Shown here piece after piece: positions 312-63,963 of a DNA stretch of 64,000 nt. This DNA is from an uncultured Alphaproteobacteria bacterium (GTDB lineage: Bacteria > Pseudomonadota > Alphaproteobacteria > RF32 > CAG-239): positions 133 through 64,132 of the forward strand of contig CALXWC010000006.1 in assembly GCA_944392265.1 (NCBI GenBank). Direction: 5' to 3'. Numbering within the stretch: position 1 is the first letter of the stretch; every line of letters begins with the position of its first letter. A program made the position numbers and the translations under genes. The notes beneath the pieces were generated by a model. That model was not told the DNA's origin and ran no database searches. It saw only the letters and a list, made by a program, of their open reading frames with translations.

Positions 312-935
312 ATGAAATTCACACCAATCGATATAAACAACTGGAACCGAATAGAATATTTTGAACATTATCATAAAAACATTCCTTGCACCTATAGCAT
401 GACGGTCAAGTTAGATATTACAGAGATAAATAGTAAAAACAAAAATTTATATTCCACCCTGCTCTTTTGCCTTACCCAAATCATCAATCGACATCAAGAA
501 TTTCGCACTTGTTTTAACTCTGAAGGCACATTGGGCTTTTTTGATGAAATGATACCGAGCTACACGGTCTTTAACCCGGAAACAGAAACTTTTACCAGCC
601 TATGGACAAGCGGAACCCAAGATTATGACACGTTTTATCAAGCATATAAAAAAGATGTTGCAACATTTGGCAAAAATCAAGGTCTGATTGGCAAGCCTGA
701 TATGCCGGAAAATGTTTTCAATGTATCAATGATTCCTTGGGCAAGTTTTGATGCTTTTAACCTCAATCTGCAAAAAGGTTATGACTATTTATTGCCGATT
801 TTTACCTTTGGAAAATATTATAAAGAAAATGATAAATATTGGCTGCCTTTAAGCATTCAAGTTCATCACGCGGTGTGTGATGGCTTTCACACCTGCCGAT
901 TGATTAACGAATTGCAAGAAATGCTCAAGGCTTAA
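312..935 (+). CDS. cat: type A chloramphenicol O-acetyltransferase
   Basis: 207 aa. The N-terminus MKFTPIDINNWNRIEYFEHY and the C-terminal catalytic motif VHHAVCDGFH are classic CAT (CatA-type) signatures, and the length is typical. Confidence 0.9.
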   Translation: MKFTPIDINNWNRIEYFEHYHKNIPCTYSMTVKLDITEINSKNKNLYSTLLFCLTQIINRHQEFRTCFNSEGTLGFFDEMIPSYTVFNPETETFTSLWTSGTQDYDTFYQAYKKDVATFGKNQGLIGKPDMPENVFNVSMIPWASFDAFNLNLQKGYDYLLPIFTFGKYYKENDKYWLPLSIQVHHAVCDGFHTCRLINELQEMLKA

Positions 936-946
936 TTGCAAACAAG

Positions 947-981
947 TTGACAAAACTTTCAAAACACTATATTTTTGTCTA
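947..981 (+). promoter_or_regulatory. sigma70-like promoter, copy A of a duplicated promoter/leader cassette
   Basis: TTGACA at 947-952, then TATATT (spacer 15) or TATTTT (spacer 17). 31 of 35 nt match 2154-2188. It lies exactly 73 nt upstream of the ATG at 1020. Confidence 0.55.
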
Positions 982-1019
982 CAGAACAAAATATAATTGT
1001 AACTAAAAAAATAACTATT

Positions 1020-1592
1020 ATGAAAGCATTAAAACAACTATTTTCTTCTGAAAAACGCCGTGAAGAAATGAAAAATTTCAAAGCTCAATGCGAAGTGCTT
1101 GAAACAAAAGTTTCTGCTTTTCTTCAAAACAAGAGCAAAGATATCCCATCAGGAAAACTTGCCATTAGAAATTTACAACACCCTATCTTAAATAAAGATG
1201 ATGCAGTTGCTTTTTTTGGCGAGTTTCTGGGAGAAGAAGTAAACAAGCATCTGGTCGCTTTAGTAAAGCTTGAGGAACAATATTCTCCTCAAAAAAACAA
1301 AATGCTGTGCTGGACTTATAAAAACTTCTTTATCCGCCTCACTGACAAAAAAGAGTATGGATACTTTGCTGATAGAATGTTCTCAAAGCTTGTCATAACC
1401 GACGAAGTTTTCAGCATTCCGGTTGCGCCTTTCACGAACTTAAAAATAAAAGTCCGTAATGAAGAAATTTTCCCTATAGACATCGTTTCTGACGAACGGG
1501 GAAAGCAAGAACGCATCAAAAAGACATTGCAAGTCTACGCAACAAAAAAGCCTTTGAGCAAAGTGCTTGAAGACATAAAATGTCTTTCCTAA
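1020..1592 (+). CDS. hypothetical protein
   Basis: The ORF track gives 975..1592 from a TTG that lies inside the promoter/leader repeat. The first ATG (1020, MKALKQLFSS) is more plausible. I recognise no motif. A hairpin terminator follows. Confidence 0.55.
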   Translation: MKALKQLFSSEKRREEMKNFKAQCEVLETKVSAFLQNKSKDIPSGKLAIRNLQHPILNKDDAVAFFGEFLGEEVNKHLVALVKLEEQYSPQKNKMLCWTYKNFFIRLTDKKEYGYFADRMFSKLVITDEVFSIPVAPFTNLKIKVRNEEIFPIDIVSDERGKQERIKKTLQVYATKKPLSKVLEDIKCLS

Positions 1593-1627
1593 AAAAAAGC
1601 GAGGTGAATTCACCCCGCTTTTTTTGT
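1592..1627 (+). terminator. rho-independent terminator
   Basis: aaaaaaaGCGAGGTGaattCACCCCGCttttttt: GC-rich stem with one mismatch, followed by a T-run, immediately after the stop codon. Confidence 0.7.
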
Positions 1628-1666
1628 GATGATAAAGACTGCCTGAAAGCAATCTGAAAATTAGCC

Positions 1667-2044
1667 TTAACAATGCCGAACAGACTTCTTAGCAAAATAA
1701 ATTTGGCAGATTTTCATAAAAGCCCAATCATTTGCAATTCTGATATTAACATAATCGCCATCTGAATATTGATAAAAAATCCACGTTCTTATTGCTATAA
1801 ATCTTTCGTAAAGAAAATCATTTCCATGCTTTTTCATGCATATAAACTGGATAAATCCGATAATCCATGCCCAAAAAGGCAAGACCCAATATCCGGCTTT
1901 TTCTTTATAAATAAGTTTACAGCGCCACAAAATAAATTTTACATATCCGTTATAAAGCAGAGCTACAACAAACGGCACAACAAATAATGTTGCAAAAAAT
2001 AATAAAACGTTTTCCATAAGGCATAAATTTAAATTATAAGACAT
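1667..2044 (-). CDS. hypothetical membrane protein
   Basis: 125 aa with at least two long hydrophobic, Trp/Phe-rich segments (LLFFATLFVVPFVVALL, WVLPFWAWIIGFIQFI). No recognisable family. Confidence 0.45.
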   Translation of the reverse strand: MSYNLNLCLMENVLLFFATLFVVPFVVALLYNGYVKFILWRCKLIYKEKAGYWVLPFWAWIIGFIQFICMKKHGNDFLYERFIAIRTWIFYQYSDGDYVNIRIANDWAFMKICQIYFAKKSVRHC

Positions 2045-2153
2045 AATTACAAAATATTATCCCTATAGTACTAAATTCACATTCAAAAAGTCAATGAAAA
2101 GTTCCTCATATATTTTCTATTACAAAAACATTCAACTTTTAATTTTGCATATA

Positions 2154-2188
2154 TTGACAAAACTTTCAAAGTGTTATATTTTTGTCTA
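2154..2188 (+). promoter_or_regulatory. sigma70-like promoter, copy B of the duplicated promoter/leader cassette
   Basis: TTGACA at 2154-2159 with the same spacing and -10 region as copy A. It is also exactly 73 nt upstream of its ATG (2227). Confidence 0.55.
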
Positions 2189-2226
2189 TAAGAAAATATA
2201 ATTATAAACTTAAAAATTATTTTTAT

Positions 2227-2421
2227 ATGAAACAGTTTTTTTTAGAATTTATCGGCCTAGCTATTGTTGGGATTGTTTTATCGTATATTGTTACTTTGCT
2301 TATATCCAAAGACATGGTAACATGGCAAACAATAGTCTATCCTCCTTTAATAATCTCTGCAGTTTATTGCATTGCTAAAGCTCTTGAAAATGGCTATGGA
2401 GAAGATGCCGTTGATGACTGA
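2227..2421 (+). CDS. small hypothetical two-helix membrane protein
   Basis: The track ORF 2182..2421 starts at a TTG inside the leader repeat; the first ATG is at 2227 (MKQFFLEFIGLAIVGIVLSYIVTLLI). Two hydrophobic helices and an acidic C-terminus. Confidence 0.45.
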   Translation: MKQFFLEFIGLAIVGIVLSYIVTLLISKDMVTWQTIVYPPLIISAVYCIAKALENGYGEDAVDD

Positions 2422-2460
2422 TTGATTGTTTTTAGTTATTAACTTAAATTCATTAAAATT

Positions 2461-3048
2461 ATGAATAAAATCGATACAATCATTTTGTTGACAACTATGA
2501 TTATTGTAGTTGTTGGTTTTATTGCTTTGTTTGTCTTTCATCGTATTAAAATTTCAAAAACAAGAAAACATATTCAAGATGAGCTAAGCGGTAAAGAAGG
2601 CGTTTATGACGGTCCGTCAGGAGAACCTCTGTGGAACGGAAAACTTCCTGAAAAAGTGTATAATTACACCGAGCCGCGCTATGTTTATGAAAATTTGGTT
2701 GAAACGACGGAATTTCAACCCCAAAACGGACGCATTATCGGTTATAGAATTTCTCCAAGTTTGGTCATTCATTCACGCGTGCAACTAATTAAACCATCTT
2801 CGGTTGCGCTCTACCGTGATCGCTTTGGCGGAAAATTATTGGAATTTTCTGATGTCAAGGCACTTGTATCTGCTTGGCAAGAAGTTTCAAAATTACGAGT
2901 TACAGCGGGAGACACTCCTCTGAATGCTAAATTCATTTATGCCACTCGACGAGGCACATTGGTTATCTGCAAAATTAATAACATGACTTGGGAAGAAGCT
3001 TCTAACCTACCCAATCTTGATGTATGTTTTTTAATTTTGAAACGCTAA
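2461..3048 (+). CDS. hypothetical protein with N-terminal transmembrane anchor
   Basis: 195 aa. N-terminal TIILLTTMIIVVVGFIALFVF followed by a soluble domain. No family recognised. A terminator follows. Confidence 0.5.
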   Translation: MNKIDTIILLTTMIIVVVGFIALFVFHRIKISKTRKHIQDELSGKEGVYDGPSGEPLWNGKLPEKVYNYTEPRYVYENLVETTEFQPQNGRIIGYRISPSLVIHSRVQLIKPSSVALYRDRFGGKLLEFSDVKALVSAWQEVSKLRVTAGDTPLNAKFIYATRRGTLVICKINNMTWEEASNLPNLDVCFLILKR

Positions 3049-3055
3049 TAAATTG

Positions 3056-3091
3056 AAAGTCTTGTATATTCTTGTACAAGGCTTTTTTTTG
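3056..3091 (+). terminator. rho-independent terminator
   Basis: GTCTTGTA..TACAAGGC stem followed by an 8-T run just after the stop at 3048. Confidence 0.6.
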
Positions 3092-3313
3092 ATTTTAAAC
3101 TTAATAAAATCTAAAGACTCCATATTCAATAAACAAAATTTTTCAAAATTTGCATTAAAAATTGAAAAAAATTAAACATTTTCTACTTTTTTTATCATAT
3201 TTTTCAGAGTTTTCCTATCTTTTGCAATAATATAGACATAATTAATTGACAAACATCATCAGTCATATAATCTGAAAATTGCGACTCAAGAAAATTTTTA
3301 AAGGAGAATAAAA

Positions 3314-4690
3314 ATGGCTAACGAATTAAATGAAGAAGCATTACAAGAAGAAATAAACGAACAAGAAGAATATCTTGAAGAAGAGGCTGGAAATGAAAAC
3401 GAACAACAAGAAAAAAATGAAAAAAAAGTTCGTATAACAATTCAAAAGCCTAATTTGTTTTTAGATGAAAATGAATACAAACAACGCCTTGTTACTGCAA
3501 TAAAAGAAAATAATGCCAGCTGGGTTCAAAATATCTCCTCACAACTTGAGACGCAAAATATGGGAAGTGTGACCCCAGAAGCCATTGATGATTATATATA
3601 CAAAACCAATATTCAAGAAATAACCTCTACTTCAAGAAACGCATTTGTAAACGGTGATTTAGAGACCGGTTACAATCAACTTTTGAAGTTTTGCTTATTT
3701 AATCCGGCAGAAGAAGCATATATGCAATACACTGAAGGTGATAATTTAAGTCAAAAAATTCCAACATATGTCACACAAAGATTGGGAAATTTGCCAAGTT
3801 TCAAAGGTGTTGTTGATCTTGGAAACTGCGTCTATGACATAATGGTAAATGACGGCGACGTCTATCAGGCTAACTTAAGCTACACAAAATTATGCCAAAT
3901 AGAAGATCAATATTCTGATGAAGAAAAAGCAAAATTAAACTTTATTGCTTCAAAAATGTTTCTAAATATCAGTGAGCTGAAAGGTAAAGGTTTGGCTGGT
4001 TTAAACGCACAAGGAAACGAACTTGAATGCTTAAACAAGGTCTTAAATTACACTTCAGATTATAATCTGATTGTTTACAGCCAAAAAAGATTATCACCCA
4101 AAAATGATAAACTTGTGGTCAGAGCATATAAACACGCTTTAGAAAACAATAACGAACCACAAAATTTATACAATATTTGCATGGCTTTGTCTGATATTTA
4201 TGCCAGAAGAGGAAGAGCAATCGGCTTTGTATACGAAGGCGGAGAAAAGAGTTTATCTTTACAAAAAGCTCAAAGATATTTGATGAATGCATATAGATAT
4301 GCATCTCCGGATAATAGATTAAACGTATTAAAGAAACTATCTTCCTTGCAACTTGAAGACGGTAACACAAAAGGATGGGAAAACACCAAAACCGTTATTG
4401 CCTATAAGTTCCTGAAAGGTGAAGAACGTTGCTTTGCGCTCAACGCCATCGGAGACAAAGTAAAAAATGTTCAATATTACCAAATGGCTCTTGAAGAATG
4501 CGATAAAGCATCTTTACCTGAACCTAATAAACGTAATATTAAAGAAATCACCTATGGCAAAATGATAAAATTAATGCCGGAAGGACAAGAAAAACAACAA
4601 GCAATTCAAACGTTAAATAAACTCAGAAAAGAAAATATGCTCGAATTTAACAGTTTGTTGCTCTTATTAGGTAATGATAAACAAAAATAA
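3314..4690 (+). CDS. hypothetical protein, acidic N-terminus
   Basis: 458 aa. AGGAG RBS 5-6 nt upstream of the ATG. The first ~35 aa are E/N/Q-rich and the remainder looks helical. No family recognised. Confidence 0.6.
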   Translation: MANELNEEALQEEINEQEEYLEEEAGNENEQQEKNEKKVRITIQKPNLFLDENEYKQRLVTAIKENNASWVQNISSQLETQNMGSVTPEAIDDYIYKTNIQEITSTSRNAFVNGDLETGYNQLLKFCLFNPAEEAYMQYTEGDNLSQKIPTYVTQRLGNLPSFKGVVDLGNCVYDIMVNDGDVYQANLSYTKLCQIEDQYSDEEKAKLNFIASKMFLNISELKGKGLAGLNAQGNELECLNKVLNYTSDYNLIVYSQKRLSPKNDKLVVRAYKHALENNNEPQNLYNICMALSDIYARRGRAIGFVYEGGEKSLSLQKAQRYLMNAYRYASPDNRLNVLKKLSSLQLEDGNTKGWENTKTVIAYKFLKGEERCFALNAIGDKVKNVQYYQMALEECDKASLPEPNKRNIKEITYGKMIKLMPEGQEKQQAIQTLNKLRKENMLEFNSLLLLLGNDKQK

Positions 4691-4755: not shown

Positions 4756-5241
4756 ATGTTAAAAAATTTATTTGCAAAAACAAACAACAAATTACAAAAC
4801 TGGCTGCAATATATGAAGAAAAAAGTATGGCTTCCGATGCAAAGAAAATATAAATCGCCGCACTATCTGGCCCGCTCAAATGCTATTGGTATGGGCTTGG
4901 CCTTTGCACCCTTCCCCGGACAAATTCCTGTTGTTGTTGCTCTATGGATGATATGCAAAAGAACCAATTTTCGTTTTAGTTTATCAATTTCCGTTGCGTG
5001 GACATTTATCTCTAACGTGTTTACAAATCTCCCATTATTTTATCTTTATTACATAACCGGAAACCTGTTGTTAGGCGCAGAAAACAATTTATCTTATAAT
5101 CAGTGGCAAAATATGTTTGGGCAAAATTTTGAAGAAGCCATAAAAGTTCTTGGCAGCAGATTTTTACTCGGAAGCTTATTTTATATGATTATATTTGGTT
5201 GCTTGGGATATTTCTTAGCTTTAAGAAAACAAAAAAACTAA
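4756..5241 (+). CDS. DUF2062-like membrane protein
   Basis: 161 aa. RSNAIGMGLAFAPFPGQIPVVVAL and the following hydrophobic segments resemble the DUF2062 family pattern. This is recalled from memory, not searched. Confidence 0.45.
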   Translation: MLKNLFAKTNNKLQNWLQYMKKKVWLPMQRKYKSPHYLARSNAIGMGLAFAPFPGQIPVVVALWMICKRTNFRFSLSISVAWTFISNVFTNLPLFYLYYITGNLLLGAENNLSYNQWQNMFGQNFEEAIKVLGSRFLLGSLFYMIIFGCLGYFLALRKQKN

Positions 5242-5879
5242 AAGCTTGTCTTGTCTTCCAACTTATCATAACGTTTATGAATACATTGAATGGCGGTTTT
5301 GTGCACACCTTGCGTAATGTCATAATAAACAAAGCGCCCCTCTTTTCTTGAAGAAAGGAAACCATCTTCTTTCAAACGCTTAAGATACTGAGAAACTTTG
5401 AGCTGTTCACTATCAATTCCTTTAATAATATCAGACACATTGCTCTCGCCATTAAGCGTTAAAAACTCCAAAATTCGCATCTTATCAAAATTAGCAAAAA
5501 GCTTAATTCTGTTTGCTACCATCAGCGTAAAATCTTTGGGCAATAATGCTTTTTCGGAAAGATAATAAAAACTGTCTGTCATATAGGCAAAAAGCTTGCG
5601 AATACATTCAAAAATACTAGCCGGATATTCTTCATATATTTCATAATAAACAAAGATTCCTTTGCGTTTGGTTTTAACCAAATTTGCATCACGCAATTTT
5701 TTTAGGCTTTGAGAAACAAAGATTTGTTCTTCATTCAAGCTCTTAGCCAAAGCAGAAACGGAAGTTGGCCCATAGACATCCAAATATTCCAATATTCGCA
5801 AACGCAACGGATGAGAAATATATCCAATCCCGCGTACAGCTTTTTTCATAATCTCTATGGGCAACTGTTTTTCCGTCAT
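5238..5879 (-). CDS. ArsR/SmtB-family regulator with two tandem winged-HTH domains
   Basis: Two internally similar halves: HPLRLRILEYL..VSALAKSL..VSQSLKKLRDANLV..KGIFVYYEI and DKMRILEFL..VSDIIKGI..VSQYLKRLKEDGFL..EGRFVYYDI. Confidence 0.7.
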   Translation of the reverse strand: MTEKQLPIEIMKKAVRGIGYISHPLRLRILEYLDVYGPTSVSALAKSLNEEQIFVSQSLKKLRDANLVKTKRKGIFVYYEIYEEYPASIFECIRKLFAYMTDSFYYLSEKALLPKDFTLMVANRIKLFANFDKMRILEFLTLNGESNVSDIIKGIDSEQLKVSQYLKRLKEDGFLSSRKEGRFVYYDITQGVHKTAIQCIHKRYDKLEDKTSF

Positions 5880-5894
5880 CTGTCAAACTCTCGT

Positions 5895-6257
5895 TTATTT
5901 TAAATAAGGTTTTACCAAAGTATCAAACTTTTTCTCATAGGCTTCTGACCAGCCCATCATATAATCATCGCCAAAGGCAAACAGTGGCGTTCCGACCATT
6001 TGACCCAGATTATATTTTTTAGCAGCCTTAAATAAAAGCTTGTAACCATCCGGTGTTTGAACATTTATCTTTTCCATTTGCAAATCCGGATATTTTTTAT
6101 TGATATAATCTTGAGCATGATGGCAATGCGGACAATAATCAGAATAGAAAAAATAGATTTTATTATTAGCAATTTCAGAATCAATTTTTGCAGCCTTTAA
6201 TTCAAGTCCAACAAAAACACACAAAGCTAAAACCAATAAACCGATAATTTTTTTCAT
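5895..6257 (-). CDS. secreted thioredoxin-fold oxidoreductase (CPHC active site)
   Basis: 120 aa. Signal peptide MKKIIGLLVLALCVFVGLELKA. YCPHCHH is a DsbA-type CxxC motif in a glutaredoxin-sized fold. Confidence 0.6.
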   Translation of the reverse strand: MKKIIGLLVLALCVFVGLELKAAKIDSEIANNKIYFFYSDYCPHCHHAQDYINKKYPDLQMEKINVQTPDGYKLLFKAAKKYNLGQMVGTPLFAFGDDYMMGWSEAYEKKFDTLVKPYLK

Positions 6258-6267
6258 AGTCTTTATC

Positions 6268-6846
6268 CTATTCTATGCAACAATCGACTGCTTTTCTCAC
6301 AAAAGCTTTCATTTTTGCCAAGGTTCCTGTTTTTTCTTCTTGAGGTTGAGCCACAACTTCTGCGGATTCTTCAATTTTTTTGGAAAGCTTTTTAATATCC
6401 TCTGTTTTATCTTCCAACCATTTAACATCATCCACATTGAGCATATTCATATTCAAGCCCCAGAATAAACAATACAATTCATAAGCTTGGTCAAATAATT
6501 TATAAGCTTCTTTAGGATGATTAAGAGATTGTTGCTTTGTTCCAACTTCCATCAAGCGCATGGATGAAGCCAATAAATGCTTTGAAATGCACCATACTTC
6601 TCCCTCATATGCCGGAATAACTTTTTGCATTAATTCTTTACGCATTTCTCTAATATTTTGAATCAAATCATAAAAAGAAGTTTTACCAGTTTTTGCGCCG
6701 GAAAATACCAAATGTTCTTCAATGCTGATAAGATTCATAATTGCAATAGTCAAATCTTGATCTGAAGACAAATCTTTAGGGTTAACTTTTTTAGAACTGT
6801 CAATTTTTTCAACAAATTCTTTAACGCTTTCAATTTTTTTCATCAC
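6268..6846 (-). CDS. hypothetical protein ending in DCCIE
   Basis: 192 aa, helical and cytoplasmic-looking, with a C-terminal vicinal Cys pair. First gene of the apparent operon 6846 to 5238. Confidence 0.5.
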   Translation of the reverse strand: MMKKIESVKEFVEKIDSSKKVNPKDLSSDQDLTIAIMNLISIEEHLVFSGAKTGKTSFYDLIQNIREMRKELMQKVIPAYEGEVWCISKHLLASSMRLMEVGTKQQSLNHPKEAYKLFDQAYELYCLFWGLNMNMLNVDDVKWLEDKTEDIKKLSKKIEESAEVVAQPQEEKTGTLAKMKAFVRKAVDCCIE

Positions 6847-6874
6847 ACTTCTCCAAATAGTAAATCTTACACAT

Positions 6875-6904
6875 ATTATATTTGTAATATATAAAAATTG
6901 TCAA
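6875..6904 (-). promoter_or_regulatory. sigma70-like promoter for the 6846-5238 operon
   Basis: The reverse strand reads TTGACA (6904-6899), an 18-nt spacer, then TATAAT (6880-6875), about 30 nt upstream of the ATG at 6846. Confidence 0.5.
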
Positions 6905-6934
6905 GTATTAAATTGCAATATTGAATAAATTTAC

Positions 6935-7473
6935 ACATAAAAAAAAGCACCTTTTCCAAGGTGCTTTTCTTAAAACTGGGGCGAACGATCGGGCTGGAGA
7001 AAAAAATAATTTCCGGTGGAAATTATTTTGACGACAGGCGCAGATTTGTTAGCTTTAAGGAACGCGACAGCGCATCCGAAAAAGCGTTACAAATCAAGTG
7101 ACCGCAGCGAGTTAGAGTTTTTTTTGTAAAACTCTTACGAGCCAGACGAACCTTGGTTCGAGCCCGTCTCTGATACATAAAAAAAGCACCTTTTCTAAGG
7201 TGCTTTTCTTAAAACTGGGGCGAACGATCGGGCTGGAGGAAAAAATAATTTCCGGTGGAAATTATTTTGACGACAGGCGCAGATTTGTTAGCTTTAAGGA
7301 AAGCAACAGCGCATCCGAAAAAGCGTTACAAATCAAGTGACCGCAGCGAGTTAGAGTTTTTTTGTAAAACTCTTACGAGCCAGACGAACCTTGGTTCGAG
7401 CCCGTCTCTGATACACAAAAAAAAGCACCTTTTCCAAGGTGCTTTTCTTAAAACTGGGGCGAACGATCGGGCT
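6935..7473. repeat. tandem repeat, ~2.2 copies of a ~238-240 bp unit ending inside tRNA-His
   Basis: Units start near 6935, 7175 and 7413. Each contains the hairpin AAAAGCACCTTttccAAGGTGCTTTT and the 19-nt string tggggcgaacgatcgggct (6977-6995, 7216-7234, 7455-7473). Full units add ~180 bp with further hairpins. By manual alignment, copies 1 and 2 differ by about four substitutions and two homopolymer-length changes. Confidence 0.9.
7415..7447 (-). terminator. rho-independent terminator of tRNA-His (repeated at ~6940-6970 and ~7180-7210)
   Basis: On the reverse strand, AAAAGCACCTTggaaAAGGTGCTTTT is followed by a T-run, beginning 8 nt after the tRNA CCA end. Confidence 0.8.
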
Positions 7474-7531
7474 CGAACCGACGACAACCGGTACCACAAA
7501 CCGGGGCTCTACCAACTGAGCTACGTTCGCC
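7455..7531 (-). tRNA. tRNA-His (anticodon GTG) with encoded G-1 and 3' CCA
   Basis: Manual cloverleaf on the reverse strand: G(-1) GCGAACG TA GCTC AGTTGGTA GAGC C CCGGT TTGTGGT ACCGG TTGTC GTCGG TTCGAGC CCGAT CGTTCGC C CCA. All stems pair, the anticodon loop is TT-GTG-GT, and G-1 pairs with C73. Confidence 0.93.
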
Positions 7532-7683
7532 ATTAACAGAAGTGCTTTTACTAAAAAAAATAATCAAAGTCAAGTAATATTTTATGAAAAAAATTAACAA
7601 TTTATTTTCATTTTGCATTTATAATATTTTTAATTTTGGTATACAGAAGCGTCAAATCAATCGAATCTAGCAAGGTAAATAAG

Positions 7684-8880
7684 ATGAATAACAAGAAGAT
7701 ATCCATAGTAAAAACAAGTATTTGCAGCTTTATATTGGGCATTATGGCTATAAGTAACGCCCATGCAAGCGTATCTTCTATTCTTATTGATGCAGAAACC
7801 GGAAAAGTATTATCAGAAAGCAATGCCGATGAAAGACGTTATCCGGCATCTTTGACCAAGCTCATGACCTTGTATATAACTTTTGACGCATTAGAAAACG
7901 GCATCATCAAATGGGATGACAAATTGCCTGTTTCTCGTAAAGCTGCCAATATGGCTCCTTCCAAAATCGGTGTTAAAGCAGGAGAAAAAATCAGCGTTAA
8001 AGACGCTGTTATGGCATTAATTGTTAAATCTGCCAATGACTGCGCCGTTGTTTTGGCAGAAGCTTTAGGATATTCTGAAGAAAACTTTGCCAAAACCATG
8101 ACACATGTTGCCAAAGAACTTGGCATGAAAGACACCACATTTTACAATGCTTCCGGATTACCAAACCGCAATCAAAAAACCACAGCTCGTGATATGGCTC
8201 TTTTAGGCGGTGCGTTATATCATCACTTTCCACAATATTACAAACTTTTTTCCACCAGAAAATTCACTTATAAAGGTAGAACCATTTATACCCATAACCA
8301 TCTTTTGAAAAATTTCAAAGGAGCAGACGGCATGAAAACCGGTTTTACCAACGCAGCCGGATTTAACATTGTGACTTCAGCCCACAGAGACGGAAATCGC
8401 GTTATTGCCGTAACCATGGGACACAGAATGTTAAAACAAAGAGATAAAAAAGTTGCTTCTTTAATGGAAAAAGGCTTACAAAAACTTGCCTTGAACCAAA
8501 CTCAAGAAGAAATAAAAGTTGCTCAAGAACAAAACAGCTACAAAAATGAAGTAAAAGAACAAATTGCCGATAATAGCTTAACGGTAAATAACAGCAACGA
8601 GATTTACAATTGGGGTGTTCAGGTCGGAGCATTTTCAAATTATGCCAAAGCCAGAAATTATGCACAAAACATCAAAGAAAAAATTGCTTCACAATCAGAG
8701 CAAACAATCGTTGATGTAGAGCCGATTCAAAACGGTGGCGCAGTTGTTTATCGCTCCAAAATAATCGGTTTTGAGAAAAAAGAAGCAAAAAACTTGTGCA
8801 ACCACTTGAAAAAATCACACAAATCTTGCATAGTCATAACTGTAAACAATTCGGAACTGACTTTAGCTAATAAACTCTAA
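7684..8880 (+). CDS. D-alanyl-D-alanine carboxypeptidase (PBP5/6 class) with C-terminal SPOR domain
   Basis: SxxK (ASLTKLMT), SxN (KSANDC) and KTG (MKTGFT) motifs. Signal peptide from the ATG at 7684 (MNNKKISIV..AHA). The C-terminal WGVQVGAFSNYAKARNYA..YRSKIIGFEKKEAKNLC is SPOR-like. The track start at 7636 is probably too early. Confidence 0.85.
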   Translation: MNNKKISIVKTSICSFILGIMAISNAHASVSSILIDAETGKVLSESNADERRYPASLTKLMTLYITFDALENGIIKWDDKLPVSRKAANMAPSKIGVKAGEKISVKDAVMALIVKSANDCAVVLAEALGYSEENFAKTMTHVAKELGMKDTTFYNASGLPNRNQKTTARDMALLGGALYHHFPQYYKLFSTRKFTYKGRTIYTHNHLLKNFKGADGMKTGFTNAAGFNIVTSAHRDGNRVIAVTMGHRMLKQRDKKVASLMEKGLQKLALNQTQEEIKVAQEQNSYKNEVKEQIADNSLTVNNSNEIYNWGVQVGAFSNYAKARNYAQNIKEKIASQSEQTIVDVEPIQNGGAVVYRSKIIGFEKKEAKNLCNHLKKSHKSCIVITVNNSELTLANKL

Positions 8881-50570: not shown

Positions 50571-53500
50571 ATGTTAAAAGAAATTAATAAGTTAAGATCA
50601 CAAAGAGGCAGCCTGATGGTTGAAGCTTTGGCAATGCTTGGATTAATTTCCATGGTAACTCCTGTTGTATATAAAAAAGCGGCCGAACGCACAAATGAAA
50701 TGCAAGATATTAACGCAGCAAGCCAAGTCCGAACCGTTGTTAACGGAATTGATGCCTATTTAAGAGATAACTACTCTGTTATCACCAGCGGAGGAACCGT
50801 AACCTCTAATTCCGCGTCTGAATCCTATAAAGAAGTAAACTATGCTGATTTTGGCTTTAATGATAGTTCTACAGAAACCAAGACATCAGCTCCGATTAAT
50901 ATTGAACACTTTAGAGATTATTTGCCAATTGGTTTCCAAAACCAAGGTAAAATATTTAAAGATTTACAAGTTGTAATTAAAGAAACAAAAGACCCTGAAG
51001 GTACAAGAAAAGCACTTACAACCATTCTTGTTGCCCACCCCAAAGATGGTGGACAAGGCTTCACAAAAATCAGAACATCTCGTATTGCATCCATGATTGG
51101 AACAAACGGTGGTTATGTTGACGGAGACAAAGCAACCGGTGTACAAGGTGTTTGGCAAATTCCGACAGATGAATTTCCAGATGAAATTAAAAACAATTTA
51201 AAAGACGGAACTATTGTTGCTACATCTCTTGAATCTGTAGCAGATGGCACGGGAGGAGGAACCAACGTATTATACCGTGTTGCTATGCCTGGTCGTGAAG
51301 ATTTAAACATGATGGAAACCACATTAAACATGGGTGGAAAGAACATTTCTAACATTACCAATTTAATTGCGGATACTCAAAATAATACAGTTAATATCAA
51401 GGGAAACGCAGATACAGAAACAACTCTTAATGTTACTGGTGATGGTGTATTTTCTTCTAGCTTAAAAGCTGCCAGAGAAAACTTCTTAGCAGAAGAAGGG
51501 TATACTCAAATTAAACAAAAACTTTACGTTGGTGACAGTATAGAAGATTCTTCAGCAAAATTCATGGTAGATGGCAACACAGGAAGCATAAGTGCTCTTG
51601 GAGGAAATTTATATGCCGGATATTATAACGGTAACCCATATCTGCGCTTTGGATCAAACGCCTCTCCTCGATTACTCAAAGTAGATGAAAGCCAAGCTTC
51701 GTTTATGGAAGATAAAGTTACGATAGATGCTGCCGGCAATACAGACATTGTCGGAGATACGAGTATTGATGGTACTTTAGCAGCTGTCCAATCTGGTGGT
51801 GAAAATAAATATGCATTTACAACAGACGCTGAAGAAGCTCAATTCTATGATGAAACACTTCATGTATTAAAAGATGCCAGAAGAGTAGATATAGGTAATG
51901 AAGGAAATCCAGCAAATTTAAGAGTATACGGAGAAACTATACTCAATGATTTAACCGTAGAACAAGACTTTAAAGCGGGACATGTTGCAGGTACAAGTGA
52001 CTACGGACTCAATGTAAATGGCGGCACAGGAAATGTCTTAATCAAAAAAGATTTAGAGGTTAACGGTAGTGGTACATTTAACGACTTGTTTTTTGTAAGA
52101 GATCAAGGCGGTAACGATGTATTAACAGTTAATAGCGCAGCAAATGGAAAAACCTATATTAAAGAATTAGCTGTCGGTAACAGTTCTGCAAACAATTATC
52201 AAGGCGGCACAGATAGAGGCACACACATATCCCTCTCTGGTCAAAAAACGATTCTAGCTGGAGGAGATGAATTCACAATTGGAACGACCGGTGGCGGAAT
52301 CAAAATAAAAGCAGAAGATCAAAAGCTTTCACTTGGAAGTGGCGTTCGAACAGATCAAGACAAAAACGAGTTGGTAATCACTTCTAACCAAGCTCAACTA
52401 AATAGTGCTCTAAGAATTAGGACTGATGATCAAGGAGCTGGTATCTTAGCCATAAACAATGAAACAGACTCCAGTAAATTTTATCAGGATAAAGATGGCT
52501 ATACAATGTCAACTTCAGATTACCCTATTTACATTCGTAAAGGTGCTATTGAGATTATGCCAAATGAAGGAACAGGAACTTCCTCTGATTCAGAAAGATT
52601 TGGCTATATCAAAGCCGATCGTTTTGTCAGCAATAACAGATTCGTCGGTTCAGGCAACAACGCTCAATTTCCAGACGGAACCGCTAGCATAGATGGTAAT
52701 ACGGTTAGTAACCCATATACATATGAGGTAAATCCGGCATATACATCAATGATGAATGATATTAAGTTATCTTCACGCGGCGGCGCACGCTTAAGCGATA
52801 TATTACCAGACTTTATCAACAAAGGTATCTACGTTCTGGATAATACTTACGAAGGAAACAGCGACTGGGAAACAGCACAATTTAAGAGTGACGGCGTACT
52901 TCAAGGGTTAAGTGATTGCTCTGATGTCAACTGTGATACTTCTCCTTGGTTAGGTTTTATTCCTACCCCTCATTGTCCGCCAAACTATGCTGCTGTGGCT
53001 ACAATTACACCGATTCGCTTTAATATGGCGCAAGCAGGTATTGCTATTCAAGGCGATGGAACATTCCCTGGAGGATCATCACCAAGAGTTACGATTGCTC
53101 AAACCAACAACCCAAAAAATGCGGAATTAAAAATCAGTGAAAACGGTGGTACTGCGGTTGATAGCTATCTTCCTTTTGCCTATATAACAGATAACAGTCA
53201 GGACCCGAAAAATTCATACAGCATTGCTGGAAGCGGTATGCAGTCTCCTACATATTGGGTAAATTTTGTCAATCACCCATATAACTTCCAAATTAACACA
53301 TGGCTGAACACAACCATAAAAAAATATTACCAAGATTCTAAATTCCAAGGATGGCATGGTATTATGGGCTTTATTTATCCGGCTCAACAATATGCAGAAA
53401 TTCAAGGAAAATCTCAGAGTGATTATAAATCAGATGATATTATTTGGAACCTATTTCCGGTTCGTCCGCAAGAGCTCTCTGCAATTGCAACAATATACTG

Positions 53501-53654
53501 CTACTTTGATAGAGAACAATACAGCACACCTATGGTTGATCCTTATTTACCACACAATGCCGCAATTGGTTCTATCAGATACGGACATGACGCACAAAAT
53601 TCTAAATCTGTGAACTACAATGATCCGACATTAAACTATGACAACCAATGGTAA
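50571..53654 (+). CDS. giant (1027 aa) protein with type IV prepilin-like N-terminal signal and repetitive solenoid-like body
   Basis: AGGAG RBS. The N-terminus is MLKEINKLRSQRG/SLMVEALAMLGLISMVTPVVY: a basic leader, Gly at -1, Glu at +5, then a hydrophobic helix. The G/N/T/D-rich body has recurring N-x-x-[IV]-x-G...[IL]-x-[VG] strands. All four Cys lie in the last ~270 aa. A strong terminator follows. Confidence 0.6.
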   Translation: MLKEINKLRSQRGSLMVEALAMLGLISMVTPVVYKKAAERTNEMQDINAASQVRTVVNGIDAYLRDNYSVITSGGTVTSNSASESYKEVNYADFGFNDSSTETKTSAPINIEHFRDYLPIGFQNQGKIFKDLQVVIKETKDPEGTRKALTTILVAHPKDGGQGFTKIRTSRIASMIGTNGGYVDGDKATGVQGVWQIPTDEFPDEIKNNLKDGTIVATSLESVADGTGGGTNVLYRVAMPGREDLNMMETTLNMGGKNISNITNLIADTQNNTVNIKGNADTETTLNVTGDGVFSSSLKAARENFLAEEGYTQIKQKLYVGDSIEDSSAKFMVDGNTGSISALGGNLYAGYYNGNPYLRFGSNASPRLLKVDESQASFMEDKVTIDAAGNTDIVGDTSIDGTLAAVQSGGENKYAFTTDAEEAQFYDETLHVLKDARRVDIGNEGNPANLRVYGETILNDLTVEQDFKAGHVAGTSDYGLNVNGGTGNVLIKKDLEVNGSGTFNDLFFVRDQGGNDVLTVNSAANGKTYIKELAVGNSSANNYQGGTDRGTHISLSGQKTILAGGDEFTIGTTGGGIKIKAEDQKLSLGSGVRTDQDKNELVITSNQAQLNSALRIRTDDQGAGILAINNETDSSKFYQDKDGYTMSTSDYPIYIRKGAIEIMPNEGTGTSSDSERFGYIKADRFVSNNRFVGSGNNAQFPDGTASIDGNTVSNPYTYEVNPAYTSMMNDIKLSSRGGARLSDILPDFINKGIYVLDNTYEGNSDWETAQFKSDGVLQGLSDCSDVNCDTSPWLGFIPTPHCPPNYAAVATITPIRFNMAQAGIAIQGDGTFPGGSSPRVTIAQTNNPKNAELKISENGGTAVDSYLPFAYITDNSQDPKNSYSIAGSGMQSPTYWVNFVNHPYNFQINTWLNTTIKKYYQDSKFQGWHGIMGFIYPAQQYAEIQGKSQSDYKSDDIIWNLFPVRPQELSAIATIYCYFDREQYSTPMVDPYLPHNAAIGSIRYGHDAQNSKSVNYNDPTLNYDNQW

Positions 53655-62315: not shown

Positions 62316-62430
62316 AATTCATCATCCTTAAAAAAACTTATAAGTATTATATAGTGAATAAAAAATAATTTTCAAATTGTTCTTAAATTTTTTTTTGCTA
62401 AAATGGGGAAAACTAGCAAAAGAGAGACAA

Positions 62431-63963
62431 ATGCCAAAAGAACTGGAAATATCCGAAGATTTTTCAAAAGCCTTTGAGTTGATTGAAAAAAGCAACAAGC
62501 ACCTTTTCATCACCGGAAAGGCAGGGTCTGGAAAATCAACTTTTTTGGAATATTGCCAAAACCATTTAAACAAAAATATGGTTATGCTGGCTCCAACGGG
62601 TGTTTCAGCCTTAAACATCAAAGGTCAAACCATTCATAGGTTCTTTGGCTTTCCGGTAAACATCAGCGTAGAAAAAATAAAATCTTTGGAGTTCACGCCT
62701 CGCGCCAAGAGGATATATAAAAACTTAGAAACGCTGATTATAGATGAAGTCTCAATGTTAAGGGCAGATTTGCTTGATTGTATCAATTGCTTTTTAGAGC
62801 TTTACGGACCGGTCAAAGGCGCGCCCTTCGGCGGTGTTCAGGTTGTTTTTGTCGGAGATTTATATCAGCTTCCACCGGTTATTTCTAAAGCAGAAGCCCC
62901 CTATTTTTATCAAAAATATGAAACCGCTTATTTTTTTAGTGCCGAAGTTTTCAAAAAAATCCCGCTTGAAGTTATAGAGTTAAAAAAGATTTATCGTCAA
63001 AAAGACCAAGATTTTATTGAAATGCTCAGCCGTTTTCGCAACAATACAGTCACCAAAGAAGATATTCAAAAACTAAACTCTCGCCTCAATCAAGAGCAAA
63101 AGTTTTATAATTTAACCGAGTTTCAAATCTTTTTGACTGCGACCAATCTTCAAGCAGAAAAAATAAACCAACAACATCTAGAAAAACTAGATGGCATTAC
63201 CTATTGTTCTGATGCATTTGTTGAAGGAAATTTTAATCAAGATTCATACCCAACGGCTGAAACCCTATATTTCAAAATCGGTTCTCAAATAATGTTTTTG
63301 AACAATGACAGCAAGAACAGATGGGTTAATGGCTCATTGGGATATATTGAAAAAATTTTTATGGAAAACGGGAAAATCAAACATATTTCTGTTCGCTTGA
63401 TGCAAGATTATAAACTGGTTGAAGTATTCCCCTATTCTTGGGAAATTTTCAAATATAAGATTGAAGGTAAAGAAATTATATCTGAAGTTGCCGGTTCTTT
63501 CACACAATTTCCGTTCCGTTTGGCATGGGCGGTCACCATTCACAAAAGCCAAGGCAAAACATTTGACCATGTGGTAATAGACATTGGTCAAGGCACCTTT
63601 GCTACCGGACAACTTTATGTGGCATTGAGCCGTTGCACATCTTTTGAAGGCATAAGCTTAACCAAAGCCATATCGCCAAGACATATTTTAACTGATGAAA
63701 AAATCAACGATTTTTTAAGCACATATCTTCCACATGAGCAAACTTTGGCAGAAAAAAGCAAAATTTTGCAAGAGTCGATATATCAAAAAAACAAATTATT
63801 GATAGAATATACCAAAGCCAACGGAGAAGAATCAAAAAGGATGATAATTCCACAACATATAAGCAAAAACAATCTATTAGCCTATTGCATTCAAAGAAAT
63901 GAACAAAGAACTTTTGTAATTGAACGAATAAAAAGTATAAAAATTTTAAAAAATAATAACTAA
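62431..63963 (+). CDS. pif1: PIF1/RecD-like SF1B DNA helicase with C-terminal WYL-like domain
   Basis: Walker A GKAGSGKST, IIDEVSM, GDLYQLPPV and AVTIHKSQGKTFDHVVI. The C-terminal KRMIIPQHISKNNLLAYCIQRNEQRTFVIERIKSI is WYL-like. ATG at 62431 preferred over the track start 62377. Confidence 0.8.
   Translation: MPKELEISEDFSKAFELIEKSNKHLFITGKAGSGKSTFLEYCQNHLNKNMVMLAPTGVSALNIKGQTIHRFFGFPVNISVEKIKSLEFTPRAKRIYKNLETLIIDEVSMLRADLLDCINCFLELYGPVKGAPFGGVQVVFVGDLYQLPPVISKAEAPYFYQKYETAYFFSAEVFKKIPLEVIELKKIYRQKDQDFIEMLSRFRNNTVTKEDIQKLNSRLNQEQKFYNLTEFQIFLTATNLQAEKINQQHLEKLDGITYCSDAFVEGNFNQDSYPTAETLYFKIGSQIMFLNNDSKNRWVNGSLGYIEKIFMENGKIKHISVRLMQDYKLVEVFPYSWEIFKYKIEGKEIISEVAGSFTQFPFRLAWAVTIHKSQGKTFDHVVIDIGQGTFATGQLYVALSRCTSFEGISLTKAISPRHILTDEKINDFLSTYLPHEQTLAEKSKILQESIYQKNKLLIEYTKANGEESKRMIIPQHISKNNLLAYCIQRNEQRTFVIERIKSIKILKNNN

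Follow-up and report, generated by a model that had tools for sequence, protein, structure and literature searches.

In the 64-kb stretch of DNA analysed here (hereafter the window), which MipZ, GcrA and flagellar genes mark as alphaproteobacterial and which has a G+C content of about 35%, a gene for tRNA-His is accompanied by a short tandem array that repeats the 3′ end of the tRNA gene itself. The subject of this report is the segment, termed the core, that lies between the repeats. The gene, tRNA-His(GTG), is the single tRNA gene in the window (7455–7530, minus strand; ARAGORN and Rfam, 61.8 bits), and Tandem Repeats Finder (TRF) reported one array only, at 6935–7473, with a period of 239, 2.3 copies and 97% matches. 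A first reading of the window from its letters (the sequence-only reading) had described three copies of the last 19 nt of tRNA-His in tandem units that share one terminator hairpin, and both observations hold: the 19-mer TGGGGCGAACGATCGGGCT, the complement of tRNA-His positions 58–76 including CCA, occurs three times as an exact match (0 expected from 100 shuffles), each copy being preceded by an identical succession of A-run, hairpin and T-run. On the plus strand, the order of the parts is T0-A0-C1-T1-A1-C2-T2-A2, in which T denotes the hairpin, A the tRNA 3′ end and C the 182-bp payload that contains the core, and A2 belongs to tRNA-His (Table 1).

The A and T segments form a block of 61 bp (the last part of the tRNA, T-loop position 58 through CCA, with the terminator hairpin that belongs to it), and the 182-bp payload that alternates with these blocks (6996–7177 and 7235–7416) has no further copy in the 64 kb (blastn). 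Each unit is made up of A+T, a core of about 150 nt that runs from GGAGG to GAGCCAGA, a 14-nt palindrome (h4) and a short inverted copy of the T-stem. The core is placed exactly between positions 57 and 58 of the partial tRNA-His copy, in antisense orientation, and an intact tRNA-His is retained because the 61-bp 3′ end and host terminator flanks the core on both sides. T2, the hairpin next to the intact gene, comprises an A-run, a GCACCTT/AAGGTGC stem and a T-run, and is terminator-like on both strands (an automated terminator scan did not flag it); it is also present in a strain that lacks the array (L059, see below), and orthologous, species-specific hairpins are found in relatives. In unit 2, the palindrome reads CGAACC-TT-GGTTCG (7385–7398) and is followed by AGCCCG (7399–7404), an inverted copy of tRNA-His positions 58–63. 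The sequence-only reading had seen in GGTTCGAGCCCG a T-arm-like motif; the inverted sequence is indeed there, but it is half of this palindrome together with inverted host T-loop and T-stem bases, and not a T-arm. The 11-bp perfect hairpin and the imperfect GCGAGTTAGAG.../...CTCTTACGAGC hairpin that it had listed are both present.

Table 1. Features of the array at tRNA-His, from the intact gene outwards (positions are those of the window).
Feature	Coordinates	Strand	Basis and remarks
Intact tRNA-His(GTG) with encoded G-1 at 7531	7455–7531	−	ARAGORN, Rfam, sequence; the last 19 nt (7455–7473) are A2, the proximal repeat member
T2, terminator-like hairpin and CTTAAAAC spacer	7417–7454		Sequence; native host DNA
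Palindrome h4, AGCCCG and 12-nt spacer, unit 2	7385–7416	+	Sequence
C2, core copy (GGAGG...GAGCCAGA)	7235–7384	+	Covariance model R1, 166.5 bits, E=1.6e-39
A1, 19-nt tRNA-His 3′ end copy	7216–7234	−	Exact match
T1, second terminator hairpin copy, one loop substitution	7178–7215		Sequence, blastn
Palindrome h4, AGCCCG and spacer, unit 1	7147–7177	+	Sequence
C1, core copy, 97.8% identical to C2	6996–7146	+	R1, 165.4 bits, E=3.1e-39; blastn
A0, distal 19-nt tRNA-His 3′ end copy	6977–6995	−	Exact match
T0, distal terminator hairpin copy	6935–6976		Sequence, TRF; borders unique DNA that holds the promoter of the divergent open reading frame (ORF) 6268–6846

All of the sequences compared in this work are metagenome assemblies, and the array could in principle be an artefact in which the assembly joined variants of one single-copy locus from two strains. 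The contig is of this kind, and in L001, a short-read scaffold of the same strain, an N-gap falls exactly at the array and one copy looks chimeric. We nevertheless find an artefact hardly credible, as only about 40 nt separate the variants in T1 from those at the start of C2, with the result that single reads span the junction, and assemblies made independently for at least five further species or loci also contain at least two units. In addition, the two full 239-bp units are distinguished by about seven positions and therefore do not represent a collapsed or duplicated read path of a single copy. Given the N-gap in L001, the presence of at least two units is surer than the exact copy number, and two may be an underestimate.

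To the right of tRNA-His, a block encoding a D-Ala-D-Ala carboxypeptidase, MipZ and phosphoglucomutase is conserved, and the left side differs by species. A scan of a genome collection with the right-end motif of the core returned eight loci (L011–L018), all in metagenome-assembled genomes (MAGs) of uncultured (alpha)proteobacteria; look-ups of carboxypeptidase homologues yielded additional loci, and about 10 related MAG species have the core at tRNA-His. The sequence-only reading had proposed to search for it in related genomes. The order T-A-C-T-A-tRNA is found next to tRNA-His in L013, L035 and L037, and is preceded by a partial C in L016, L018 and L039; L014 has two head-to-tail cores with no tRNA piece between them, and L002, L006, L015 and L017 have the right part of C only, beside T-A-tRNA. 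As these loci were found through the right-end motif, the apparent 5′ truncation of distal copies is biased. The A copy and the T hairpin are each species' own tRNA end and terminator, the hairpin sequences being wholly different between species, and the distal tRNA copies have decayed at L025, L030, L035 and L039. Immediately to the left of the distal partial core of L018 (reverse complement, 100–300) lie G-rich short repeats (GGGGTGACA.../GAGGGGTGCA...). More distant relatives (L007, L008 and L010, 1760–3760) carry a 2-kb AbiEi/AbiEii islet without an integrase at tRNA-His, which has a degenerate tRNA 3′ end copy at its border (L007, 1763–1790) and of which L009 is the empty site.

The head-to-tail junctions (L014 and L041) and the tRNA-Pro loci described below set the bounds of the core proper, GGAGG...GAGCCAGA, at 142–155 nt. 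The remainder of the 182 bp consists of the CGAACC-TT-GGTTCG palindrome, AGCC with 2–5 host-derived bases, and a spacer. The bases after AGCC are the inverted 3′ strand of the host T-stem (CCCG in the window, CTCAT in L016, CCCC in L013), and h4 is invariant or stem-preserving, with loops TT, TC and TTTA, at every tRNA-His-type locus. An alignment of 11 cores (A4) was the source of both the consensus fold and the covariance model R1. The fold consists of a hairpin h1, a long irregular hairpin h2 and an irregular hairpin h3, which are joined by the invariant junctions GACGACAGGCGCA, AAGTGACC and CTTAYGAGCCAGA; in C2, h1 occupies 7243–7267, h2 7277–7342 and h3 7346–7381, with GACGACAGGCGCA between the first two and AAGTGACC between the last two. 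Across the 11 cores, standard pairing is found in 95.1% of the cells of 45 pairs, and both-sided changes affect 21 pairs (74 cells); the junctions are invariant and the stems are variable. None of 500 column shuffles matched the fold on four of five measures (2 of 500 did on the count of pair types), and when the partners were slid by 1–3 columns as a control, 34–47% of the cells were paired.

The strand on which this fold is selected can be read from its wobble pairs. Hairpins h2 and h3 together have 10 variable G-U/U-G cells and an invariant G-U pair versus one C-A cell, and h1 has no G-U strand bias; since these G-U pairs would be A-C mismatches if read on the opposite strand, the selected fold is on the plus strand, antisense to tRNA-His. 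The core is thus a selected fold that is specific to one strand. The sequence-only reading had offered a duplicated reverse-strand small RNA (sRNA) gene after the tRNA as one explanation, which fares badly: the wobble asymmetry puts the fold on the plus strand and no promoter was found in the unit. A minus-strand sRNA that ends at h1 is ruled out by the same G-U/A-C asymmetry.

Between species, the right half of the core is 82–99% identical (aligned columns only, in sequences picked by motif) versus 73–81% for the adjacent carboxypeptidase (penicillin-binding protein) genes; the core is conserved more strongly than the coding gene beside it. Every species has it in colinear form; the long helix h2, in which changes are compensatory, runs across its middle, and it is not scar DNA in decay. 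R1 retrieves all full copies at 115–171 bits and partial copies at 29–51 bits. A weaker R1 match at L017 7484–7634 (24.5 bits) was rejected as a tandem repeat unrelated to the core; the repeat, of about 120 bp (CGAGTAGTAGGCGCCGAGGGAAAAAGTACC...), extends over 7300–7560 on the minus strand of that locus.

Several ways in which the core might express or belong to something known were tried and set aside. A small ORF of 31–48 codons (window, L016 and L013) is not conserved in start or frame: it begins with TTG, ATG or CTG in some species, has no start in L014, L018, L039 or the tRNA-Pro type, and is broken in L035, and the substitutions in the core are compensatory in stems, not synonymous. No sigma-70 promoter was found in the unit; the candidate TTGACG-N16-TAGCTT in the core was rejected, as its −35 element is not conserved (L018, L039, tRNA-Pro type) and the bases of its "−10" element, the only conserved TA...T hexamer, pair and covary within h2. 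Transfer-messenger RNA (tmRNA), whole or in two pieces, was excluded by a negative ARAGORN result and by the absence of the acceptor 5′ strand, and group II intron domain V, hammerhead and twister motifs were found neither by eye nor with Rfam. An Rfam scan of the unit, which the sequence-only reading had recommended, revealed no family beyond tRNA: in Rfam 15, only tRNA scores above the gathering threshold over the whole window, and at E<=10 over 6800–7700 the other matches have just 10–23 bits and fall mostly on terminator hairpins. The families without a match include tRNA-like RNAs, tmRNA, group I introns, small ribozymes, 6S RNA and Y RNA. Searches of the literature returned no description of an equivalent module.

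The core is not confined to tRNA-His. Searches of viral contigs and phage collections led to a tRNA-Pro(TGG) locus (L041, L042 and L044), with nothing beyond tRNA-Pro loci and chance matches, and the same downstream type is found in L045, L046 and L051. At this locus, the intact gene is followed by its terminator, a perfect palindrome of 20 bp composed of anticodon stem and loop sequence, the core, a 36-nt tRNA-Pro 3′ copy that begins at about position 40, and the terminator again; the core is co-oriented with the tRNA. The second copy without the core corresponds to tRNA-Pro positions 27–76, and the core therefore lies in the anticodon loop (about position 37). In a second species (L053–L057; RadC 86% identical), the core is shorter, has diverged and is located on the upstream side of tRNA-Pro; before it stands a duplicate of the 14 nt upstream of the gene and of tRNA-Pro positions 1–37, with the same junction TTTGGG^CTGGAGG (the caret marks the boundary), and L053 contains two such upstream units. 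The tRNA-Pro flank is GGG-CT, in place of the GGG-AG of the native gene. The adjacent duplication, whether of the 3′ part and terminator or of the 5′ part and upstream region, always preserves one intact tRNA.

A prophage with DUF2924 and a large serine recombinase is found at several tRNA-Pro loci (L042, reverse complement, about 1300–4050; L047, L048 and L050, 3433–5699; L053, 3729–5708). It lies behind the pseudo-copy in L042 versus behind the functional tRNA-Pro in L047, L048 and L050; the duplicated tRNA end is therefore usable as a second attachment site (an alternative attB), which shows that duplicated tRNA ends are spare attachment sites for this prophage. In the part of the L042 prophage region searched with R1 (about 12 kb), there is no second core copy, and the core is found only in arrays among the loci searched.

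Two further tRNA contexts were encountered. In L011, from the same MAG as L014, a core right end is followed by a terminator, a tRNA-Ala-like 3′ fragment and GGAGG with h1. A metagenome scan yielded mostly chance matches and three low-GC tRNA-Lys(CTT) loci (L021, L025 and L030) with a layout like that of the His type, T-A-payload-CGAACCTTGGTTCGAGCC-inverted host bases-T-A-tRNA; their payload differs from the core, and the R1 search gave no match in it. At two of these loci (L021, 2515–2713; L030, 2294–2490), a second small insert of about 125–150 nt is located 5′ of tRNA-Lys(CTT), between direct repeats that comprise the 5′ part of the tRNA and sequence upstream of it, and in L021 this insert ends in CTTTACGAGCC, which resembles the right end of the alpha-type core.

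Copy number is polymorphic: strains of a single species have none, one, two or at least three copies. Strains whose neighbouring RadC is identical, for example, carry one, two or at least three cores head to tail at the tRNA-Pro locus. L059, from another sequencing run, shares the identical 191-aa ORF that flanks the array of the window, and its site is exactly empty (flank-T-tRNA-His); in a second species, L004 and L005 are without the element and L006 has it. L049 (3433–3470) lacks the terminator, palindrome, core and pseudo-copy together with about 270 bp beyond them, and the junction at an ATGTCG microhomology marks this locus as a deletion derivative, therefore not a pristine empty site.

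Partial tRNA copies beside tRNA genes are routinely taken as integrase scars; here, the intervening DNA is a conserved, covarying fold. A scar reading would hold that larger elements (phages, integrative and conjugative elements (ICEs) or islets) repeatedly used the tRNA-His 3′ end as attB and were then deleted, leaving inert attachment (att) arms. It can draw on the fact that tRNA genes are integration hot spots in these genomes, as the AbiEi/AbiEii islet (in L007, L008 and L010, not L009) and the serine-recombinase prophage (attached to the functional tRNA-Pro in L047 and to the pseudo-copy in L042) illustrate, and on the decay of distal tRNA copies noted above. Yet no locus has a larger version with genes between core halves; the core is colinear everywhere, with h2 spanning its middle through compensatory changes, and is conserved beyond coding DNA; and the duplicated block holds the species-specific terminator of the host, which is not expected if the block came on a foreign element. 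We therefore regard inert scars as very improbable. Of the integrase-scar interpretation in the sequence-only reading, the tRNA 3′ repeats survive, but the block includes the host terminator and the core ends share no overlap; its related suggestion of a collapsed remnant of tandem integrations does not agree with one colinear module in every species, better conserved than the adjacent gene and held together by compensatory helices.

The integrase that the sequence-only reading had suggested seeking was not found: Pfam scans of the 50 large ORFs of the window returned no integrase, recombinase, transposase or reverse transcriptase. Nor do the junctions point to one, as left, right and head-to-tail junctions have no consistent overlap or central dinucleotide of the kind that tyrosine or serine recombinase att sites would show; GGGCT^GGAGG and GAGCCAGA^CGAACC share no overlap, nor does the head-to-tail junction GAGC(C/T)AGA^(G/A)GAGG. 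An IS110 bridge RNA was also rejected, since there is no reprogramming of the loops from the His to the Pro target and a CT core is not present at both ends, as was a tRNA intron, since the core is antisense at tRNA-His and the interrupted tRNA-Pro copies are only partial (27–76 or 1–37).

Among the explanations first proposed, a small non-autonomous element that targets tRNA genes is the best supported, given the occurrence of the core at tRNA-His, at tRNA-Pro in two configurations and by a tRNA-Ala-like fragment, its polymorphic copy number, an exact empty site in the same species and the lack of a recombinase nearby. Our favoured reading, which we hold tentatively and put at a little under an even chance, is that the core is the non-coding active ingredient of the composite 239-bp unit and a helper-dependent, highly structured mobile module that resides in loops of tRNA-gene copies and represents a family unmatched in Rfam 15. 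Such a module would move, or have moved, via a single-stranded intermediate (single-stranded DNA (ssDNA) or RNA of the plus strand), with the movement handled by an enzyme encoded elsewhere, and an insertion into a tRNA gene would survive only when a partial duplication rebuilds the tRNA. Arrays, of two units here, might grow by unequal homologous recombination between the 61-bp A+T repeats or by head-to-tail reinsertion, and recombination between the same repeats could also remove an array and restore the empty site. On either side of the 19-nt tRNA copy, hairpins T and h1 are terminator-like on both strands and may insulate the module.

Several points weigh against a mobile module. No helper enzyme, excised circle or transcript was seen, and its mobility is deduced from its distribution; the tRNA-His loci share junctions and could reflect one ancient insertion with vertical descent, or exchange by homologous recombination; and the empty site can equally be explained by clean loss through recombination between repeats. 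The ends of the core are without terminal inverted repeats (TIRs), a target-site duplication (TSD) or a shared overlap sequence, and therefore no known transposition or site-specific chemistry fits cleanly. Two local features, the GGG-CT flank at tRNA-Pro and the palindrome with inverted T-loop copy beside the core, fit no explanation offered. Moreover, strong purifying selection on the fold would suit a host-beneficial RNA equally well.

This last consideration leads to the main rival of the mobile module, a structured sRNA gene on the plus strand: the core would be a gene of the host or of an islet, ended by hairpin T and tandemly duplicated, and the tRNA pieces would be mere borders. The strong helix covariation with G-U asymmetry on one strand, the invariant junctions among variable stems (as in functional RNAs), the conservation of the core beyond that of the neighbouring coding gene, and a hairpin and U-run after the core on the plus strand in every context all accord with such a gene. 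So does the arrangement in L053–L057, where the core stands behind the upstream region and 5′ half of tRNA-Pro and ahead of the intact tRNA-Pro, and could therefore be co-transcribed with tRNA-Pro and freed by RNase P. We still consider an sRNA gene rather unlikely, because the unit has no sigma-70-like promoter, its conserved TA...T hexamer covarying inside h2, and because what lies upstream varies (an A copy, the palindrome, another core or a tRNA 5′ half) and includes a terminator-like hairpin just upstream in most loci. The orientation relative to the tRNA is reversed between His and Pro, some strains of the same species are without the core, which is hence dispensable, and there is no match in Rfam. 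Tandemly duplicated sRNA genes are known in bacteria, PrrF1/PrrF2 and AbcR1/AbcR2 being examples. Like these and like Breaker-type orphan motifs, the array consists of tandem structured modules of 150 nt, each followed by a terminator-like hairpin, and it shares with them conserved junctions and variable, covarying stems; unlike them, it has no promoter that was found, is dispensable within species, always lies in a tRNA-gene fragment and is not fixed in orientation.

A third possibility is that the core acts at the DNA level, as a cis site in folded ssDNA that resembles an origin of transfer (oriT), an attC site or a secondary attB platform and is used by a conjugative element or phage. In favour of such a site, the fold that is conserved belongs to one strand and no promoter was found; the core would be protected from transcription by the terminator-like hairpins to either side of it; and the duplicated tRNA 3′ end serves as an alternative attachment site of the serine-recombinase prophage (L042 versus L047). 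In addition, h2 followed by the invariant AAGTGACCGC resembles the inverted-repeat-plus-nic layout of MOBQ-type oriT, a likeness of only 7 of 12 bases. No relaxase, integron integrase or conjugation gene lies nearby among the ORFs of the window, however, and a collection of 72,556 plasmids contains no match to the core. Integron attC sites have the core sites R''(RYYYAAC) and R'(GTTRRRY), which do not fit here. Like attC and CTX-type ssDNA substrates, the module combines a strand-specific fold and little conservation of stem sequence with arrays of short units at one site, and a closing stem is formed from inverted copies of target sequence; unlike them, it has no IntI/Xer-type gene nearby, no R'/R'' motifs at its boundaries and no ORF, and its attachment site is a tRNA loop. 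Overall, we judge a cis site of this kind improbable.

The mobile module that we favour also has to be set against known elements. Elements and islands that target tRNA genes through a tyrosine integrase cross over in the T-loop or the anticodon loop, and Williams is said to have arranged tRNA integration sites in sublocation classes in 2002. Tandem islands linked to ssrA are reported in Dehalococcoides (PMC3146451). Like such elements, the module creates direct tRNA 3′ repeats that start in the T-loop (His) or the anticodon region (Pro), keeps the tRNA intact, has a displaced distal copy that can decay, and is stacked in tandem. It departs from them in that the insert is a gene-free 150–180 bp with a conserved fold and no integrase nearby, the host terminator lies inside the repeat, the junctions have no common overlap, and the core doubles head-to-tail without a tRNA piece.

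Cis-mobilizable elements (CIMEs) derive from ICEs by deletion, are kb-sized and have bona fide attL and attR as their borders. CIMEs and other "hitcher" elements without their own recombinase are reviewed in PMC5704250 and PMC11389934. The module is likewise non-autonomous, bounded by attachment-region repeats, arranged in accretion-like tandem arrays and presumably helper-dependent, but it has no known parent element, its unit is 10–100 times smaller, and the feature conserved in it is a single-strand fold. With miniature inverted-repeat transposable elements (MITEs), palindrome-associated transposable elements (PATEs) and rolling-circle IS91-like elements, it has in common a length of 100–300 bp, a non-coding nature, subterminal hairpins and several loci per genome; unlike MITEs and PATEs, it has no TIRs and no short TSD, as its ends (GGAGG.../...GAGCCAGA) are not inverted repeats, and, in contrast to PATEs, its hairpins h1 and h3 bear no relation to each other, the sequence of each being free to vary. 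The reversed left flanks, GTTC(G) at His and CTTG at Pro, resemble the IS91 target tetranucleotides, at two junctions only. The flanks GGTTC(G)^ (His) and ATCTTG^ (Pro) are compatible with that target rule, and no HUH transposase was seen in the window.

Taken with these comparisons, the core is best placed as a variant of helper-dependent, tRNA-associated elements that does not qualify as an integrative element, a MITE, a cassette, a tRNA intron or a member of an Rfam family. A more far-reaching idea, to which we give a low but not negligible probability, is that it represents a new class of non-autonomous element that would use a folded RNA or ssDNA intermediate to insert in tRNA loops (57/58 and about 37) in either orientation and survive where partial tRNA duplication rebuilds the gene, or else the stand-alone RNA (guide or ribozyme) of an undiscovered recombination system that targets tRNA genes. 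Such a class would be a bacterial counterpart of tRNA-targeted elements resembling short interspersed nuclear elements (SINEs) or retrozymes.

The core occurs in many uncultured Alphaproteobacteria-like MAGs, several of which come from samples of gut or faeces. If mobile, it would offer a new route to the colonisation of tRNA genes without an on-board recombinase, and the helper enzyme would be worth finding; if it is an RNA gene, it would define a new class of structured RNA. Either way, there is testable material in the form of a 150-nt model, a species with both exact empty and filled sites, and arrays that range from 0 to at least 3 copies.

Several other features of the window were recorded in passing. 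A perfect TTGACA-18-TATAAT promoter (6904 to 6875, minus strand) lies 30 nt from the distal end of the array and heads an operon on the minus strand (ORFs 6268–6846, 5895–6257 and 5238–5879) within a left flank that is different in every related species; two of its ORFs have no Pfam match (192 and 120 aa, the latter faintly thioredoxin-like), and the operon also encodes a double winged-helix regulator of the ArsR/MarR type. The variable region to the left of the array contains a chloramphenicol acetyltransferase gene (312–935, plus strand; E=5e-76), near which several ORFs without a family match are located (975–4690). Beside the flagellar genes for FliL and FliM, an ORF on the plus strand (50571–53654) encodes a 1027-aa protein with a Shufflon_N-like N-terminal region. 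A stand-alone PIF1-like helicase of superfamily 1 with a C-terminal WYL domain is encoded at 62377–63963 (plus strand); it has no HUH/Rep domain and is therefore not a Helitron-type protein.

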